Positions 40,872 to 46,391 of a DNA stretch of 64,000 nt are shown one piece after another. This DNA comes from an uncultured bacterium. Lineage in GTDB: Bacteria > Patescibacteriota > JABMPQ01 > CAVVCK01. The first letter of the stretch is position 1. Every line of letters begins with the position of its first letter. Below the pieces are notes generated by a model that saw nothing but the letters and a program-made list of their open reading frames with translations, made no database searches and had not been told where the DNA came from. The stretch covers positions 232,978 to 296,977 of the forward strand of contig CAVVCK010000002.1 in assembly GCA_963746775.1 (NCBI GenBank), in the 5' to 3' direction. Both the position numbers and the translations under genes were made by a program.

Positions 40872-41187
40872 TTTTTTAGAAATTAATTAAAAACAACCCT
40901 ATATTAGAGGATCGTTAAATTTTTACTTATAAATAATAACAAATTATAGAAAATACATCAATACACTTATTTTCTCTAAAAAATAATCAAAAAGCCGCAA
41001 GTTAGATTCACCACAGAAGACTTATTCGAATAGCAATATAGAATTGAGGAGAGAGATTTTTTCCTTTTTACAGGAAAAATTCTGTATATACTATTTGATC
41101 TACTGTAATAGAATTTTCTACTAACTTGCGACTTTCTGAAAAGAATTTTTCTTTCTATTTAAATTATACAATAATATTGATTTTATG

Positions 41188-42384
41188 TCAAAATACAGGG
41201 GTAGGTTTCATAGTTTCTGTAGCTCTTTCTTTGCTATTGCTACTAGAATGCCTGGGGAAAATTATTAAAAGATCAGCTTCTTCTAAAGTATACATAAAAT
41301 CATTATTACCTACCCAACTTATTGTACGACCTTCTATATTGTCTTCCTGATCATATTCGTATTTGACAACTGCCGCATCTCCGTATTTATTTCTATAATC
41401 AATCAAACTTGCCTCCATATTACCTTCATTTCCCCTGTATATCGGCCAAATATATGCTACCCCATCTTTTTTTAATAATCTATCAATTTCATCCCAATAA
41501 ACATCAAATTCTCTTTTTTCCATAACTGGAAACATATGAGTGGAAATAGACCAAGAAGCAATTAATCTATCAAATTGCTTATCTTCAAAAGGCATATCTG
41601 GAAAAGCAGCTTTTACCATTTCCGCTTGCTTATATTTTTTAATAAATCTGTATTCTTGTACTAAATTCTTTATTATTCTTTCTTTTTGCTCTTCAGTAAT
41701 TCCTCTATTTTTAATCATTTCTTCTTCAATCGCTGGCTCAATTACTTTTTTTACTAGATATATATCAGCAAAACCTCTTTGTAATTTATTCACATCATAC
41801 CATAAATTTTTTAAATCATTTTCAGAATCACCCATATCACTGCTATGTTCTTTTTTCTCTTTATTAATTAGTTCTACTATATAACCAGAAAGTTCAGAAA
41901 GCTTTGGATAATTTTCAATTTCTAAATTTGTCATTAACTCTTTCAGTTGTTCTTGCGCCAAATTTATTGCAGTAACTAAACCTTTTCTATTATTAATAAG
42001 TCTATTGCAGAATACTTCAATATTTTTAATATAATCTTCTGCTTTTTTTAAAAATTCCTCTTCATTATACTGAAATTCAGCTTCTTCTCCTAATTCATAA
42101 TCTACATTCGTAACACCCTCTAAATCAAGTGTTTGCCAGGGATCACCAATATTTAATATTTTTCCATCTTCTGGAAATAATTCTTCACGAGCTACTCCTG
42201 ATTCTAAGACATAATCTTCTACCTTTCTACCAGTTAATGCTTTTTGTTCCTTATCTACAATTTCTATTGATCTTATTATTCTTTTTTTTATTCTATCCAA
42301 AATATCTTTATCAGCCTCTTCTATCTGATTGTTAATATCTCTTCTAACATCTTTTTCTGGAACTTTTCTTCCAAATCCTTCCAT
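41188..42384 (-). CDS. Hypothetical protein (398 aa, acidic, no family recognised)
   Basis: Long ORF with consistent local codon usage; coiled-coil-rich N-half, globular C-half. Confidence 0.4.
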   Translation of the reverse strand: MEGFGRKVPEKDVRRDINNQIEEADKDILDRIKKRIIRSIEIVDKEQKALTGRKVEDYVLESGVAREELFPEDGKILNIGDPWQTLDLEGVTNVDYELGEEAEFQYNEEEFLKKAEDYIKNIEVFCNRLINNRKGLVTAINLAQEQLKELMTNLEIENYPKLSELSGYIVELINKEKKEHSSDMGDSENDLKNLWYDVNKLQRGFADIYLVKKVIEPAIEEEMIKNRGITEEQKERIIKNLVQEYRFIKKYKQAEMVKAAFPDMPFEDKQFDRLIASWSISTHMFPVMEKREFDVYWDEIDRLLKKDGVAYIWPIYRGNEGNMEASLIDYRNKYGDAAVVKYEYDQEDNIEGRTISWVGNNDFMYTLEEADLLIIFPRHSSSNSKERATETMKPTPVF

Positions 42385-42465
42385 TTATTTTATTAAATTA
42401 ATAAATATTAAAAAATAATTTCTATGGAATTATTATATTAAAAAATACAATTTGATATTAACATA

Positions 42466-42507
42466 CAGGGGCGGTAGGAATCGAACCTACGTCGCTGGTT
42501 TTGGAGA
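42466..42507 (-). tRNA. 3' portion (nt 31-73) of a split tRNA-Trp(CCA)
   Basis: Minus strand TCTC-CAAA-ACCAG-CGAC-GTAGG-TTCGATT-CCTAC-CGCCCCT-G; anticodon-stem 3' strand ACCAG and acceptor 3' strand CGCCCCT complement the 5' portion at 42978..43010. Confidence 0.6.
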
Positions 42508-42562
42508 CATCTGCCTAGAGCACTAGGCAGATGAGCCATCTGCCTAGAGCACTAGGCAGATG
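42508..42562. repeat. Two tandem copies of a 26-bp perfect palindrome CATCTGCCTAGAGCACTAGGCAGATG
   Basis: 11-bp arms plus 4-nt centre; copies at 42508..42533 and 42537..42562 separated by AGC; directly abut anticodon nt TCTC of the tRNA fragment. Confidence 0.8.
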
Positions 42563-42584
42563 AGACCAGCATCACATTATTAAA

Positions 42585-42854
42585 CTATTTTTTATCTTTT
42601 AATTCCAACCTCTTCATTAAACCGTAATATGCAGAACCGCTATTCTTTAATGATTTCTCTCGTTTTAAAGCTAAGTATTTATCATTAAATGATTCATAAT
42701 AAATAAGCTTAATTGGCAAATATTTTTTAGTACTTTTTACCATCCCTTTCTGATGGCTATCAATTCTTTTCTTTAAGTCACTAGAATATCCGATATAGTA
42801 TTTTCTATTTGGCCTTTTTATTTTAAGAATATATACATAAAACATAATCTTCAT
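42585..42854 (-). CDS. GIY-YIG nuclease-domain protein (UPF0213/YhbQ-like, 89 aa)
   Basis: FYVYILKIKRPNRKYYIGYSSDLKKRIDSHQKG...IKLIYYESFNDKYLALKREKSLK; start codon 1 nt after the 3' end of tRNA-Trp. Confidence 0.75.
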   Translation of the reverse strand: MKIMFYVYILKIKRPNRKYYIGYSSDLKKRIDSHQKGMVKSTKKYLPIKLIYYESFNDKYLALKREKSLKNSGSAYYGLMKRLELKDKK

Positions 42855-42855
42855 A

Positions 42856-42926
42856 CAGGAGCGGTAGGAATCGAACCTACACCTCCGGTTTTGGAGACCG
42901 GAATTCTACCACTAAACTACGCTCCC
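42856..42926 (-). tRNA. tRNA-Trp(CCA), intact
   Basis: GGGAGCG-TA-GTTT-AGTGGTA-GAAT-T-CCGGT-CTCCAAA-ACCGG-AGGT-GTAGG-TTCGATT-CCTAC-CGCTCCT-G. Confidence 0.8.
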
Positions 42927-42952
42927 CTTTTAATAATTTTTAGTTTTGGAGC

Positions 42953-42978
42953 CATCTGCCTAGGGCACTAGGCAGATG
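42953..42978. repeat. Third copy of the 26-bp palindrome (CATCTGCCTAGGGCACTAGGCAGATG)
   Basis: One centre substitution relative to the tandem pair; again inserted after anticodon nt 34 of a tRNA-Trp 5' portion. Confidence 0.8.
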
Positions 42979-43010
42979 AGACCAGCATTCTACCACTAGA
43001 CCACGCCCCC
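42978..43010 (-). tRNA. 5' portion (nt 1-34) of the split tRNA-Trp(CCA)
   Basis: Minus strand GGGGGCG-TG-GTCT-AGTGGTA-GAAT-G-CTGGT-CTC; complements the 3' portion at 42466..42507 in acceptor and anticodon stems. Confidence 0.6.
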
Positions 43011-43192
43011 ATGCACTAAATACCAAAATACAAAAAACAAACTACAAAAATATATTATTGATTTTTATAATTTCTAATTTAGAATTTGTAATTTGTTTGG
43101 AAATTGATTATTGAAAATTGGAAATTTTTAACCAATTTCCTTATATGTACATTTAAAATAAATTGAAGCTTGGCTAGTGCGTCTATTTCGTT

Positions 43193-43348
43193 TCCTTATG
43201 TACCGTATGTTTCTTACAAAACTTGCAATATTTCTTTAATTCCAGCCTTTCTTTCAAAATCTTTTTATTTTTATGAGAATGATAGTTGATATTATGACAT
43301 TCCGTACATTCAAATTTTATCAGATTGTCTTGTGACATATTTTTTTAA
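43193..43348 (-). CDS. rpmG: 50S ribosomal protein L33
   Basis: Minus-strand [54 protein letters not shown] (51 aa; CxxC...CxxC zinc ribbon); below the ORF-track size cutoff. Confidence 0.75.
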
Positions 43349-43530
43349 CTTATTAAATAATTTTATTAATACTATAACTAAAATCCCTATTTAGCAACCT
43401 TATTTCAGAACATATGAAAAATTTTACTTTAGAATATTTATAGAAAAATTTTTCGAACGTTCCAAGACTCAGATATTAAACAAAATCACCTGATTTAAAC
43501 ACTTTTAAATAGAAATCCTAATATAACAAG

Positions 43531-44427
43531 TCATTTCACAAACTTCAAATATTGTATTATCCATATCCCGCCTTCTCCTTCTTTAACTGGCTGTCTTAAA
43601 TAAACCTTATATTCAGAATTCAGATGATTAACTTTCATATAAACTTCGCTATTATTTTTAGATACTATTACACTTTTTATATCTTCCAGATCATATCTAA
43701 ACATATTAGCAATATCATGATTCGTCGTCTCTATGGGATCAAGCCGCCATAAATCATTTCCATTATCAATTGATTGCTGCATACCCTGCATTGTATCCTT
43801 GCTTACTGGAAAATAAAATATTTCAGTGGATTTAAAAGTTTTCTGCCATTCACCATCTTTATTCTTCTCATAGTATTGCAAGGGTCTATCTATAAATGGA
43901 TCATTGCCTTCATTCAATTCCCATATAAAATTATTGGGAGTAAAATCAGCAATTCTTGAACAATTAACAGTTTCGCTTGATTTGACACAATAAACTAAAA
44001 TACGACCCAAGGCATGATCATCGTTATATTCAACATAGAAATTACTATTATTTACAAAAGAAAATTTATTAATGGTCCACTCTGGATCATTGTTAGATAA
44101 AAATGGAGTTAATTGATTTATGTTGTTTTCTGTATAATCAATAAATTCTTTTCTTAAATTATCATCTACGGTTTCAACTTCTCCCTCTCGGTTATAAATA
44201 TCAGAATTTAAAACATTTTCTTTGTTTAAATCTAAATATTTTTGATTAGTATTAATAATATTTTTAGATTTTTCTTGATAAATTTTTAATGAAAAATAAA
44301 ATAAAATACCTAAAATTATGAGGCACAAAATAACTATTAATATTTTACCTGCTTTTTTCATCTTGATCTTATTTATAAATACGAACCACAAAATTAAACA
44401 ACTATCTACAGTGACCACTAAATCCAC
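43531..44427 (-). CDS. Hypothetical membrane-anchored/secreted protein
   Basis: Probable true start at MKKAGKILIVILCLIILGILF signal-anchor; no family recognised. Confidence 0.4.
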   Translation of the reverse strand: MDLVVTVDSCLILWFVFINKIKMKKAGKILIVILCLIILGILFYFSLKIYQEKSKNIINTNQKYLDLNKENVLNSDIYNREGEVETVDDNLRKEFIDYTENNINQLTPFLSNNDPEWTINKFSFVNNSNFYVEYNDDHALGRILVYCVKSSETVNCSRIADFTPNNFIWELNEGNDPFIDRPLQYYEKNKDGEWQKTFKSTEIFYFPVSKDTMQGMQQSIDNGNDLWRLDPIETTNHDIANMFRYDLEDIKSVIVSKNNSEVYMKVNHLNSEYKVYLRQPVKEGEGGIWIIQYLKFVK

Positions 44428-44482
44428 TCCATCCGTAACATTAAAAATAGCGGATAAGGCGGATTGTTGCGGATAGGCGGAA
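44421..44482. repeat. Array of GCGGAT hexamers (8-10-bp spacing) preceded by inverted ATCCAC/ATCCGT
   Basis: aatccactccatccgtaac ... aGCGGATaagGCGGATtgttGCGGATagGCGGAaaaa; same motif (as ATCCGC) clustered at 32849..32886 and 33411..33471. Confidence 0.6.
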
Positions 44483-44571
44483 AAAATATAAAGAATCTTG
44501 TAATCAGCATTTACAATGAAATTCTATCATAATAAAAAAATGTAAACAATCATTTTGTTTACATTTTTTTA

Positions 44572-44643
44572 AGCCACCCGTCGGATTCGGACCGACGACC
44601 TACTGTTTACAAAACAGTTGCTCTACCACTGAGCTAGGGTGGC
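44572..44643 (-). tRNA. tRNA-Thr(TGT)
   Basis: GCCACCC...ACTGTTTTGTAAACAGT (anticodon UGU)...GGTCCGAATCC...GGGTGGCT. Confidence 0.8.
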
Positions 44644-44729
44644 GAATTGCTAAAAATATAAAATATTAAAAAAATAAAAATTTATTTCTTTTCATTTTTT
44701 ATATTATTTTATTTTTATATTTTTACTAT

Positions 44730-44812
44730 TGGGCCGGGCAGGATTTGCACCTGCGTAGACCGAAGCCAGCAGATTTACAGTCTGCCCCATTTGACTACTT
44801 TGGTACCGACCC
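44730..44812 (-). tRNA. tRNA-Tyr(GTA) with long variable arm
   Basis: GGGTCGG...GCAGACTGTAAATCTGC (anticodon GUA)...long variable arm...GCAGGTGCAAATCCTGC-CCGGCCC-A. Confidence 0.7.
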
Positions 44813-44824
44813 ATATTTTTAAAA

Positions 44825-44897
44825 AGCCCACCATCGGATTTGAACCGACGACCTACTCCTTACCATGGAGTTGCTCTACCAACTGAGCTAAGTGGGC
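44825..44897 (-). tRNA. tRNA-Thr(GGT)
   Basis: GCCCACT...ACTCCATGGTAAGGAGT (anticodon GGU)...GGTTCAAATCC...GGTGGGCT. Confidence 0.8.
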
Positions 44898-44919
44898 CTA
44901 GACAACAGCAGTAGCTATA

Positions 44920-45564
44920 CTACCCTTTTAAGAAATTTAACTTATCTAATTCTTCAATAGCTTCACTATCATTAGGATCTATTTTTAAAACCTGTTCATA
45001 AGAAGCTATGGCATCTTTTTTATTGTATTGTTTGGCATATAATCTACCCAATCCTTTGTAAGCTCTTATATTTTTAGAGTCCACTTTTACTACCTCTATA
45101 TAATTACTTTCTGCTTCTTTGTAATTACCGCTGCCTAATTTCTCAGCCGCCTCTTCTAATAAATCAATGACCTTCTTTTCTTCTTCACTTTCTTTTTTAA
45201 TTTCATCGCTAGGCTCATTTTCAGTTTTTTCTTTAACTGTTTTACCCTGATTCAAATCAAGCTTATCTTTAACCAATCCTGACAATAAATCATTTTCATC
45301 TTTTTTATTAATTTTAGTCTTTTCTTTTCTGGCTTTTTTAATACCTGAAAAAATACCTTTAACTATAGACACACTAAATATTCTCAAACGTTTTCCAATA
45401 TATTTTAAAACAGATAATATTCTAGCACCTATAGTCTCTTCTTTATTTCCTTTATCTAGTTCTTTTTGGCTATATTTCGAAGCTTCAGGAAATTTCTTAA
45501 TAATTATGACAATAATAATAACAATAGCAACTAAAATTATAATCTGTGGAATAAAACTAAACAT
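44920..45564 (-). CDS. TPR-repeat protein with N-terminal TM anchor
   Basis: N-terminal hydrophobic segment; C-terminal YIEVVKVDSKNIRAYKGLGRLYAKQYNKKDAIASYEQVLKIDPNDSEA TPR units. Confidence 0.5.
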   Translation of the reverse strand: MFSFIPQIIILVAIVIIIVIIIKKFPEASKYSQKELDKGNKEETIGARILSVLKYIGKRLRIFSVSIVKGIFSGIKKARKEKTKINKKDENDLLSGLVKDKLDLNQGKTVKEKTENEPSDEIKKESEEEKKVIDLLEEAAEKLGSGNYKEAESNYIEVVKVDSKNIRAYKGLGRLYAKQYNKKDAIASYEQVLKIDPNDSEAIEELDKLNFLKG

Positions 45565-45578
45565 ATATTACTTATTAT

Positions 45579-46391
45579 TTAAGCTTTTTTCTTATTTTTC
45601 CAATTAATTTCATCTATTTTAAAATTTTCTCTTTTATCTTCTTTATCTAATCTCACTTGTACTTCTTGTTTCAAAATATTTCGAGATATTACTCGTCCTC
45701 GTCCACTCTTAGTAATAACATCCTCTCCCATCTCTGGCATCCCCACAGCTAGTGCCTTATAGGTTTTTGCTTCATAGGAGAGACAGCACATTAAACGGCC
45801 GCAACAACCTGACAATCTATCACTACCCCGATGTTCCATTTGCTGAACTCTGGCAGTATCTAGTGTAATACTTTCAAATTCTTTTAAAAATTTAGCACAG
45901 CATAATTTCCGACCGCAAATGCCATAATCACCTATTTTAGCGGCTGCATCACGAGAACCAATTTGTTGTAATCTGACTGACTTTTGAAAATTTCTGGTTA
46001 AATCTTTAACTAGTTCCCGAAAATCAATTCTAGCATCAGCTGTGAAATAGAAAGTAACTCTCGATCCATCAAAGGCAAAATGTGCATCAACTAATTTCAT
46101 TACCAACCCTAATCGGCTGACTGACTGACGACAATAATTTACCGCTTCTTCAACTTTTTTATCATATTTTTCAATCTTTTCCAGATCAGTTGTGGTAGCT
46201 ACCCGTAAAACTGGTTTTATTTTTTCACTACTTTCTTCTTCATCCTTTTTCTCAATAGAGGCAACAACACCCGACTCTGTACCCATTTCAGTATCTACTA
46301 TTACAATATCCCCCAATTTTAAATCTAGGCCTGCCGCATCAAAATCATAATTCTTGTCTTGATTATGGAAACGAACACCAGCAACTATCAT
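45579..46391 (-). CDS. ricT: PSP1 C-terminal-domain protein (RicT/YaaT family)
   Basis: VAGVRFHNQDKNYDFDAAGLDLKLGDIVIVDTEMGTESGVV N-terminal motif and Cys-rich GICGRKLCCAKF...SGCCGRLMCCLSYE. Confidence 0.7.
   Translation of the reverse strand: MIVAGVRFHNQDKNYDFDAAGLDLKLGDIVIVDTEMGTESGVVASIEKKDEEESSEKIKPVLRVATTTDLEKIEKYDKKVEEAVNYCRQSVSRLGLVMKLVDAHFAFDGSRVTFYFTADARIDFRELVKDLTRNFQKSVRLQQIGSRDAAAKIGDYGICGRKLCCAKFLKEFESITLDTARVQQMEHRGSDRLSGCCGRLMCCLSYEAKTYKALAVGMPEMGEDVITKSGRGRVISRNILKQEVQVRLDKEDKRENFKIDEINWKNKKKA

Follow-up and report, generated by a model that had tools for sequence, protein, structure and literature searches.

Why a free-standing GIY-YIG nuclease gene should lie almost flush against a tRNA-Trp gene, and whether the two form part of a mobile unit, is the question raised by one locus in a 64,000-nt stretch of DNA (the window; G+C content of 31.5%) from an uncultured Patescibacteriota bacterium of the candidate phyla radiation (CPR) (contig CAVVCK010000002.1, positions 232,978 to 296,977). 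An intact, canonical 71-nt tRNA-Trp(CCA) gene, the sole functional tRNA-Trp gene of the window, occupies positions 42856–42926 of the minus strand, as detected by ARAGORN and by the Rfam tRNA model (70.5 bits, full length). Its discriminator G (42856) is followed by T (42855) and then by the first ATG (42854–42852) of an 89-aa open reading frame (ORF) on the same strand (42585–42854; stop codon TAG at 42587–42585); CCA is not encoded. The ORF matched the Pfam GIY-YIG domain PF01541 over residues 4–73 (E = 3.6e-14) and passed the curated threshold (53.3 bits versus a cut-off of 22.6). An initial annotation of this DNA, which had described a stand-alone UPF0213/YhbQ-like GIY-YIG domain tightly packed behind a CCA-less tRNA-Trp, is thereby confirmed, with the caveat of a probable later start codon. 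All 35 homologues aligned with the window ORF begin with M[YF]YVYIL, and the public gene call on the identical contig is 86 aa; because of these two observations we regard the second ATG, at 42845, as the conserved start, so that the gap between tRNA and start codon is probably 10 nt rather than 1 nt. Exact look-up of the 89-aa product returned no record because the public call takes the 86-aa start. The TATG that supplies the first ATG is also present 3' of a broken tRNA copy (42465–42462) and is probably a duplicated tRNA flank rather than a selected start. A promoter and terminator scan between the tRNA and the nuclease gene found none that was convincing (matches did not exceed the shuffled expectation), a result that in this AT-rich region is uninformative either way; co-transcription of the tRNA and the predicted nuclease mRNA, with the mRNA end set by tRNA processing, is plausible.

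The tRNA-plus-nuclease pair is housed in a second tRNA-Trp gene, split and palindrome-capped, which the initial annotation had overlooked. We consider it probable, if by no means certain, that the whole is a selfish cassette resembling a homing endonuclease, one that specialises on the tRNA-Trp(CCA) gene 3' of rpmG and retains a functional tRNA copy. The resident tRNA-Trp gene (tRNA') is broken in its anticodon loop between U33 and C34, and the tRNA and nuclease gene sit in the break. Read on the minus strand from 43010 to 42466, the locus comprises the 5' part of tRNA', a palindrome, the remainder of the loop, a spacer, the intact tRNA-Trp, the ORF, another spacer, tRNA' positions 24–33, two palindromes, and the rest of tRNA'. 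The 5' remnant (42979–43010, minus strand) holds tRNA' positions 1–33 (GGGGGCG...GCTGGTCT, ending at U33) and is an 85% direct repeat of the 5' part of the intact tRNA. Placed exactly after U33 is the first palindrome copy (hp1, 42953–42978), CATCTGCCTAG-TGCC-CTAGGCAGATG, with a minimum free energy as RNA of -17.4 kcal/mol. The anticodon-loop remainder GCTCCAAAAC is kept 3' of it (42943–42952, minus strand), followed by a 16-nt spacer, TAAAAATTATTAAAAG (42927–42942, minus strand), that resembles the 5' leader of the nuclease cassettes at two related loci (L024 and L115) and was probably left behind by a cassette that has lost its nuclease gene through deletion. On the other side, a 12-nt spacer, TTTAATAATGTG (42573–42584, minus strand), leads from the nuclease stop codon to the 3' remnant, which opens with tRNA' positions 24–33, ATGCTGGTCT (42563–42572, minus strand; the 5' strand of the anticodon stem plus C32 and U33). 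Two further palindrome copies, hp2 (42537–42562) and hp3 (42508–42533), are separated by GCT and make up a tandem 29-nt unit spanning 42508–42562. The final segment (42466–42507, minus strand) consists of a TCT repeat and then tRNA' from C34 to the discriminator G (CCAAAACCAGCGACGTAGGTTCGATTCCTACCGCCCCTG), with TATG directly behind it; it reads TCT-CCAAAACCAGC...CGCCCCTG, matches positions 29–71 of the intact tRNA (allele B) at 88%, and is spanned by a weak Rfam match to the tmRNA/tRNA clan.

The two remnants are complementary in that the acceptor strands GGGGGCG and CGCCCCT pair, as do the anticodon-stem strands CTGGT and ACCAG, and they are halves of one gene broken after U33. A 40-nt direct repeat (42533–42572 and 42949–42988; 98% identical at a spacing of 416 nt) spans the 5' strand of the anticodon arm, the palindrome, and GCTC, and bounds a 416-nt unit. 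Because a complete tRNA of a different allele sits within the cassette, a functional tRNA-Trp gene is retained. An assembly artefact was ruled out: the locus is found unchanged, at 100% identity across 5197 nt, in a second, independent assembly from Logan (L116), and the same architecture recurs in dozens of unrelated samples.

An Rfam scan of positions 41000–46000 returned four tRNAs and noise, with no group I or group II intron or other known RNA around the ORF at E ≤ 1, and places the nuclease gene between tRNA sequences rather than within a self-splicing intron. A group I intron in the tRNA gene, of the type known from tRNA-Asn and tRNA-Asp of Patescibacteria, was rejected given that the scan detected no ribozyme fold; no Trp, GIY-YIG, or hairpin cases are described in PMC13011429. 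We also weighed whether tRNA' might be a functional split or intron-containing tRNA, in which the palindromes would pair in RNA as in the split tRNAs of Nanoarchaeum and the intervening tRNA and ORF would be removed. The palindromes are indeed mutually complementary, the halves are mutually compatible, and folding of the 3' remnant pairs its two palindrome copies and closes the anticodon stem (-51 kcal/mol). However, the window and its relatives always keep an intact tRNA-Trp, most related loci have only single-sided remnants, and the remnants of three loci (L004, L006, and L052) carry further disruptive insertions. The junction consists of a 5-bp stem, an internal loop, and an 11-bp stem rather than a bulge-helix-bulge motif, with no Rfam group I intron, and the self-complementary centres of the palindromes suggest a symmetry of DNA, not of RNA. 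No contiguous tRNA bearing the palindrome alone occurred among any of the matches, so the palindrome is not a simple intron. Taken as an explanation of the locus, a working split tRNA is extremely improbable.

The same parts recur widely. A word-seeded search returned at least 124 protein relatives, and the first contexts showed the same components 3' of rpmG; a protein-based metagenome scan yielded at least 552 relatives, and 99 distinct proteins were clustered. The clade of the window nuclease has 33 members, with an intact tRNA-Trp beginning no more than 28 nt after the stop codon in 26 of them and the 26-nt (type-A) palindrome located within 200 nt in 27–28. The initial annotation had called a protein of this kind unusual in such a context, a description at odds with the number of relatives and with a clade that almost always adjoins tRNA-Trp. 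In the commonest layout (class I), the 5' remnant (positions 1–33) is followed by the palindrome, TCTCCAAAAC(C), 11–21 nt, an 83-aa ORF, 1–9 nt, and the intact tRNA-Trp. Most relatives thus have the nuclease gene immediately upstream of the tRNA, unlike the window, whose order (class II: intact tRNA, ORF, palindrome-capped 3' remnant) is shared with L121, L059, and L046. Most loci possess a 5' remnant only or a 3' remnant only. A Shine-Dalgarno sequence is absent from most class I nuclease genes, which suggests low expression. Several loci are more elaborate: L004 contains two nuclease genes in series (a double invasion), L007 is an array with two nuclease genes, L059 has repeated remnants and a degenerate second copy, and L006 and L015 exhibit remnants of different tRNA-Trp alleles side by side. 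At L029 the nuclease gene is deleted and a remnant plus palindrome is left, the same footprint as on the left side of the window locus.

These arrays are what would be expected if the nuclease triggered segmental amplification followed by decay, such that tandem tRNA-plus-nuclease units arose, the remnants were extra tRNAs truncated later, and the palindromes were secondary insertions into dead copies. Ladder amplification of a tRNA-plus-segB segment, dependent on the phage nuclease SegB, has been shown by experiment (PMC13096335), the pairs of nuclease genes in L004 and L007 and the repeated remnants of L059 fit such a process, and the window itself has a 416-nt unit delimited by the 40-nt direct repeat. 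Set against this, the window remnants are exactly complementary parts of one allele, overlapping only in the anticodon arm and palindrome, and more than 30 independent loci are broken at one and the same nucleotide (U33/C34). Random truncation would not give one fixed break, and we therefore judge amplification and decay an unlikely account.

The perfect 26-nt palindrome occurs in three copies at the locus and nowhere else in the window, with 0 expected by chance, and it caps each tRNA' remnant at the break. Among related loci its site is constant (GGTCT, palindrome, (T/G)CTCCAAAA), usually with a flanking TCT direct repeat, and (T/G)CTCCAAAAC follows it directly at 25 of 31 junctions, as in the loop remainder of the window. 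Tandem 29-nt palindrome units are present in one, two (window and L004), or four copies (L115; array at L115:93–208), and in L022 one palindrome is nested within the loop of another. Across 30 distinct copies the 11-bp arms were 97.6% paired, with compensatory changes in 8 of the 11 pairs, a result reached by 0 of 500 shuffles; because only copies with 9 or more of the 11 pairs had been selected, the pairing percentage is inflated, but the compensatory changes are not. The 4-nt centre is self-complementary (CGCG or AGCT) in 16 of the 30 copies, so the entire 26-mer is a DNA dyad; an RNA hairpin would have no reason for such a centre. Palindromes of the CATC(C/T)GCC type go with the window's nuclease subclade (L004, L024, L115, and L121) and those of the CACC(C/T)GTC type with the sister subclade, and a separate 15-member nuclease cluster is associated with a different 24-nt GC hairpin that replaces tRNA positions ∼38–55, never with the 26-mer. 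Because palindrome type tracks nuclease clade, the palindrome and nuclease are co-inherited and possibly co-evolving.

This association bears on the notion that the palindrome itself is the agent, aimed at the TCT of the anticodon loop: either a miniature palindromic element or a recombination site for an enzyme whose gene lies elsewhere, with the GIY-YIG gene as passenger or neighbour. The TCT direct repeat around the 26-nt insert, the tandem units in one, two, or four copies, and the nested palindrome of L022 are all consistent with this idea. We scanned 185,579 species genomes for the DNA pattern of a palindrome in a tRNA-Trp anticodon loop only. Thirteen true matches were obtained, all in a CPR-type context; most are labelled as CPR (Moran-, Buchanan-, Kuenen-, and Saccharibacteria, Parcubacteria), two as Gammaproteobacteria and Thermodesulfovibrionia, and one or two simply as "bacterium". 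A GIY-YIG gene lies within ∼60 nt of the palindrome in 12 of the 12 evaluable matches of this unbiased scan, which, together with the tracking of nuclease clade by sequence type and the lack of any copy at other sites in the loci or the window, makes an independent palindromic agent very doubtful.

Other palindrome variants were noted along the way. In L044, AGACC takes the place of TCTCC after the palindrome and, being complementary to the GGTCT that precedes it, extends the dyad to 17 bp; this is the product that would be expected of fold-back (hairpin-primed) synthesis. A second junction type is found 5' of the GIY start in L053, L058, L059, L062–L065, L070, L076, and L046, where tRNA-Trp (tRNA-Cys in L058) runs to ...GGTCTCCAA and a 24-nt GC palindrome (CCCCGCC..TCGCGA..GGCGGGG) replaces positions ∼38–55 before ...CGATTCC; the adjoining genes belong to the different GIY-YIG cluster. 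Some remnants in L006 and L052 contain both hairpin types.

A close relative of the window locus, L121, was reached through a 50-aa fragment match (P0020). It has the same Tyr/Thr tRNA genes, ORF, and upstream rpmG, and its identity to the window is 88.8% for the ORF and 92.2% for the 3' remnant. From rpmG onward, the L121 locus consists of an intact tRNA-Trp, TATG..., the GIY-YIG gene, TTTAATGATGTG (the counterpart of the 12-nt spacer), ATGCTGGTCT, one palindrome, and the 3' remnant (GCTCCAAAACCAGCG...), and its nuclease gene is frameshifted by a 1-nt deletion. The 5' half of the intact L121 tRNA differs by 3 nt from the 5' remnant of the window and by 8 nt from allele B, which has a further 10 mismatches to it in the 3' half and is thus a different allele from the resident gene. 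Compared with L121, the window differs in three respects: (i) its resident tRNA is interrupted at U33/C34 by a palindrome, after which come GCTCCAAAAC and the 16-nt leader; (ii) where the resident 3' half would stand there is a complete tRNA that represents another allele; and (iii) two palindromes rather than one lie downstream. Since the resident tRNA of L121 is intact, its palindrome single, and its nuclease frameshifted, the locus has changed recently. State polymorphism among close relatives combined with co-conversion of flanking markers is expected of a free-standing homing endonuclease, and the differences between L121 and the window fit both. From this comparison we infer that the window differences are the trace of a second event, of class-I type, that has since lost its own nuclease gene. 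Together, the window, L121, L029, L004, and L059 display invasion, degeneration, loss, and re-invasion. The suggestion in the initial annotation that the nuclease may drive local rearrangement is strongly supported by these differences; the adjacency of tRNA-Trp and GIY-YIG gene is conserved among relatives, yet it is always accompanied by tRNA-Trp fragments rather than forming a stable, fragment-free pair. No empty site was found by way of the downstream 398-aa gene, whose homologues are at most 48% identical and lie in other contexts. For that ORF (41188–42384, minus strand), which directly adjoins the composite locus on its 3' side, no Pfam domain is recorded, and its neighbours differ among relatives; some of its homologues, all within the same identity limit, contain a methyltransferase domain (PF08241).

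We examined the predicted nuclease for indications of its origin and activity. PF01541 is the sole domain of the 86–89-aa protein, with no second or DNA-binding domain, and both size and domain-only architecture fit the UPF0213/YhbQ proteins (about 90–100 aa). Residues Y8, Y20, G22, R30, H34, and E66 are invariant among 36 homologues and Y6 is at least 90% conserved. An AlphaFold2 model (predicted local distance difference test score of 93.4) comprises strands at residues 5–11, 19–24, and 49–56 and helices at 27–35 and 59–71, a predicted three-stranded sheet flanked by helices as in the GIY-YIG superfamily. The best Foldseek match was the UPF0213 protein BH0048 (1zg2), followed by Slx1 and At-HIGLE (template-modelling scores of 0.63–0.67); the UvrC N-terminal domain matched weakly and I-TevI was not among the matches. 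The UPF0213 proteins BH0048 and EF2693 were also the nearest relatives of solved structure by sequence, with weak similarity (1zg2, E = 3.4e-4; 1ywl, E = 0.045), and no dedicated NCBIfam model matched the nuclease. As judged from these comparisons, the predicted nuclease is a member of a CPR-specific clade of minimal, catalytic-domain-only GIY-YIG proteins (∼83–86 aa, UPF0213/Slx1-like).

A phage source of the Seg/I-TevI type, raised by the initial annotation, found no backing. The Seg/I-TevI-like model TIGR01453 scored 20 bits versus a cut-off of 56 and aligned over only the N-terminal 79 of 215 positions, no close viral relatives were present in IMG/VR (2.9 million viral contigs), and the best matches in INPHARED (50,697 phage genomes; 37% identity, E = 2e-4) and PHROGs (E ∼0.007) were marginal; on the IMG/VR and INPHARED results, phage origin was ruled out. 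A role as an anti-phage defence component was likewise rejected, PADLOC having reported only PDC-S14 (E = 0.0025, 15 bits), as was an integrase-mediated, tRNA-targeting element: the insert is ∼0.5 kb, its sole ORF is the GIY-YIG gene, and the break is in the anticodon loop and not at the tRNA 3' end.

The nuclease gene is under purifying selection, as dN (0.15–0.39) is far below dS, synonymous sites being saturated. Such selection, the tight and conserved packing with the tRNA operon, and the widespread occurrence of UPF0213 proteins of unknown function in cells would all suit a host-beneficial, YhbQ-like housekeeping or repair nuclease tied to expression of tRNA-Trp or rpmG, with the fragments and palindromes as debris or regulatory hairpins. 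That explanation is hard to reconcile with patchy copy number (0, 1, or 2) within one locus, with pseudogenes and deletions (L121, L029, and L059), with paralogues at other tRNAs and inside rRNA insertion sequences (PMC11270868), or with broken tRNA copies that always accompany the gene. In the window, moreover, the gene is single; no other GIY-YIG gene is present in the 64 kb, none lies at the other five tRNAs, and no fragments of those tRNAs were found. A housekeeping function is, in our assessment, distinctly unlikely.

In the preferred reading, that of a homing-endonuclease-like cassette, the nuclease would cut both DNA strands, either in or close to the anticodon loop (U33/C34) or at the palindrome. 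A cassette-bearing copy would then serve as the template for repair, and the palindrome, nuclease gene, and tRNA sequence would be copied into the broken gene, with the tRNA halves themselves acting as portable homology arms; the 5' or 3' half of the recipient would be left as a remnant, the adjacent tRNA allele would be co-converted, and the retained or imported intact tRNA would keep the cell viable. The window would represent two successive events. The older, common to L121, would have given rise to the tRNA, nuclease gene, and palindrome-capped 3' remnant, and the younger would have left the 5' remnant with its palindrome, the short leader, and tRNA allele B, its nuclease gene having been lost. 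Expression may proceed by read-through of the rpmG/tRNA transcript, with RNase Z (window) or RNase P (class I) defining the mRNA end. The palindrome is most likely a DNA-level cis site, either the recognition or cleavage site of the nuclease or an insertion through which the remnants lose their target sequence.

Several points weigh against this reading. Cleavage by the nuclease is predicted, the role of the palindrome is putative, and arm-to-arm correction rather than selection could maintain the palindrome symmetry. Long-site specificity of the I-TevI/Seg kind is unexpected of an enzyme that has no DNA-binding domain. At 9 of 20 class I loci the retained tRNA and the remnant agree exactly in their 5' halves, and in L001 the 3' remnant equals the intact 3' half, with one and the same anticodon-arm sequence in both copies. 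If the naive anticodon loop were the target, the element's own tRNA should be cut too, a paradox given that this tRNA has no obvious resistance polymorphism. The strong purifying selection and wide CPR distribution would also fit a host-beneficial function, and vertical inheritance with concerted evolution is an alternative to repeated horizontal homing. The order found in the window, with the nuclease gene 3' of the intact tRNA, is in addition a minority arrangement.

The domain-only enzyme and the lack of resistance polymorphism favour the dyad-symmetric palindrome as the real cis site, as do the Slx1-like fold and the duplication of palindrome and anticodon arm on both sides. This leads to a more specific hypothesis, which we offer tentatively as a possibility: a two-component mobile element of ∼330–550 bp, composed of a Slx1-like, domain-only nuclease and its cognate 26-bp palindrome, that behaves as a natural "cleave-and-rescue" drive on an essential tRNA. 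The nuclease, as a symmetric dimer, would recognise the palindrome or the cruciform or hairpin that it forms in a highly transcribed tRNA gene, and would cut at the base of the structure. Repair of the staggered break would duplicate the palindrome and anticodon arm on both sides and would also copy in the nuclease gene with all or part of the tRNA-Trp gene. Structure-guided targeting would thus take the place of a long recognition site read by the protein.

Known systems share individual features with the cassette. SegB of phages T4 and T6 is a GIY-YIG homing endonuclease encoded in a tRNA cluster; it cuts inside tRNA gene DNA to give 2-nt 3' overhangs and drives preferential co-inheritance and recombination-dependent segmental amplification of neighbouring tRNA genes (PMC2330249, PMC13096335), and its C-terminal truncation abolishes overexpression toxicity (PMC13096335). 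Its gene lies between tRNA genes, as in the window. SegB is, however, longer, multi-domain, and phage-borne, it recognises the T-psi-C region over 27 bp, and it neither splits a tRNA gene nor carries palindromes, whereas the window nuclease is an 83–89-aa catalytic domain of cellular (CPR) origin with marginal similarity to phage enzymes, and its cassette has an anticodon-loop break, a 26-bp palindrome at each junction, and a duplicated tRNA copy. GIY-YIG ORFs have also been described in CPR rRNA genes, within insertion sequences that belong to neither the group I nor the group II introns (Tsurumaki et al. 2024, PMC11270868). These belong to the same radiation, and the same protein family occurs in the 23S/16S sequence of L060, L080, L084, L100, and L112; the paper (PMC11270868) contains no occurrence of tRNA, palindrome, or hairpin and does not treat duplication of gene parts. 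The tRNA-Trp cassette differs from the rRNA insertions in keeping an intact copy of its target. Ribosomal RNA tolerates fragmentation and tRNA does not.

An insert in the mitochondrial atp6 gene of Allomyces macrogynus resembles the cassette in that an endonuclease-bearing insert brings a replacement gene part; it differs in having a protein-coding target and no terminal palindromes. As cited in PMC4019555, that insert consists of an endonuclease ORF and a foreign copy of the atp6 C-terminus, which is fused so that function is kept. The closest resemblance in sequence and fold is to the UPF0213/YhbQ, Slx1, and HIGLE proteins, which are domain-only or minimal GIY-YIG cores. Slx1 and HIGLE cleave branched DNA as well as junctions, an activity that would, by analogy, suit a palindrome or cruciform substrate, although Slx1 requires Slx4 and a RING domain, and the identity of UPF0213, Slx1, and HIGLE to the window nuclease is 19–27%. 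We know of no UPF0213 protein with a described link to tRNA genes or palindromes. In Allomyces, the displaced original part of atp6 reportedly remains downstream (an observation attributed to Paquin et al. in 1994), and the insert endonuclease is of a different family and larger than the window nuclease. In collaborative homing, as with cyanophage F-CphI and psbA, a free-standing endonuclease acts together with a target-interrupting intron, and synthetic "cleave and rescue" drives follow a related logic. Here too a nuclease is inherited with a target-site insertion and a working copy of an essential gene; the window insert, in contrast, is a 26-bp palindrome unable to self-splice, with rescue by a duplicated tRNA and resistance not evident from the sequence. 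The literature searched, in which coverage of subscription journals was limited so that absence is not proof, held no description of a module combining GIY-YIG gene, palindrome, and tRNA-Trp; the putative selfish cassette is widespread in CPR bacteria and apparently undescribed.

If correct, this interpretation would add a new, intron-free means by which a selfish nuclease gene can persist in an essential, unsplittable RNA gene, namely by keeping or rebuilding an intact tRNA copy and marking the break with a co-inherited palindrome. It would offer a testable substrate for the UPF0213/YhbQ-like proteins, a large family of unknown function: tRNA-Trp anticodon-loop DNA and/or the 26-bp palindrome, and would account for tRNA gene fragments, and possibly for some annotation or assembly problems, in reduced CPR genomes. 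It would also relate those fragments to the known insertions in CPR rRNA genes that carry GIY-YIG ORFs and are not introns, and an ∼85-aa nuclease with a defined site would be a candidate minimal scaffold for engineering.

Additional features were observed at the related loci. In L004 (2880–2985 and 3060–3145) a 13-nt inverted repeat (TCTATCTTTTCTA / TAGAAAAGATAGA) flanks the intact tRNA-Trp on both sides, and the T-loop of the downstream 3' remnant contains an extra insertion of ∼55 nt. In L003 (600–780) and L029 (4500–4700) a conserved stretch of ∼150–200 nt separates the intact tRNA-Trp from a short 3' fragment that comprises T-arm and acceptor sequence (...GGATTCCTAGCGCCCGTGC); the stretch may represent a further inserted element or an RNA. 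Distant GIY-YIG paralogues lie directly 5' of tRNA-Tyr or tRNA-Thr in Thr-Tyr-Thr clusters (L001:1100–1580, L004:217–670, L021:5441–5772, L022:239–667, and L024:3227–3505), accompanied in L001 by duplicated tRNA-Tyr 5' fragments with other palindromes (TCCCGCGGCCGCGGGA and TCCCGCCTTGGCGGGA); the Thr-Tyr-Thr cluster of the window (44572–44898) is clean. Family members positioned directly after conserved rRNA sequence in L060, L080, L084, and L100 (23S-like) and in L112 (16S-like) presumably sit in the non-intron rRNA insertions reported for CPR. Distant members in L081, L092, L098, L106, L108, and L109 are found 57–80 nt 3' of tRNA-Ser, tRNA-Gly, or tRNA-Asp, and one or two perfect palindromes intervene, the first of which begins inside the tRNA 3' end (e.g., ...CTCCGCCATGTACCGTACGGTACATGGC). 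Finally, L114 (1–130) has four tandem 27-nt hairpin units (CCTTGTACCAGACGGTACAGGGTGGAG) directly 5' of a distant GIY-YIG gene, an arrangement that recalls the 4 × 29-nt array of L115.

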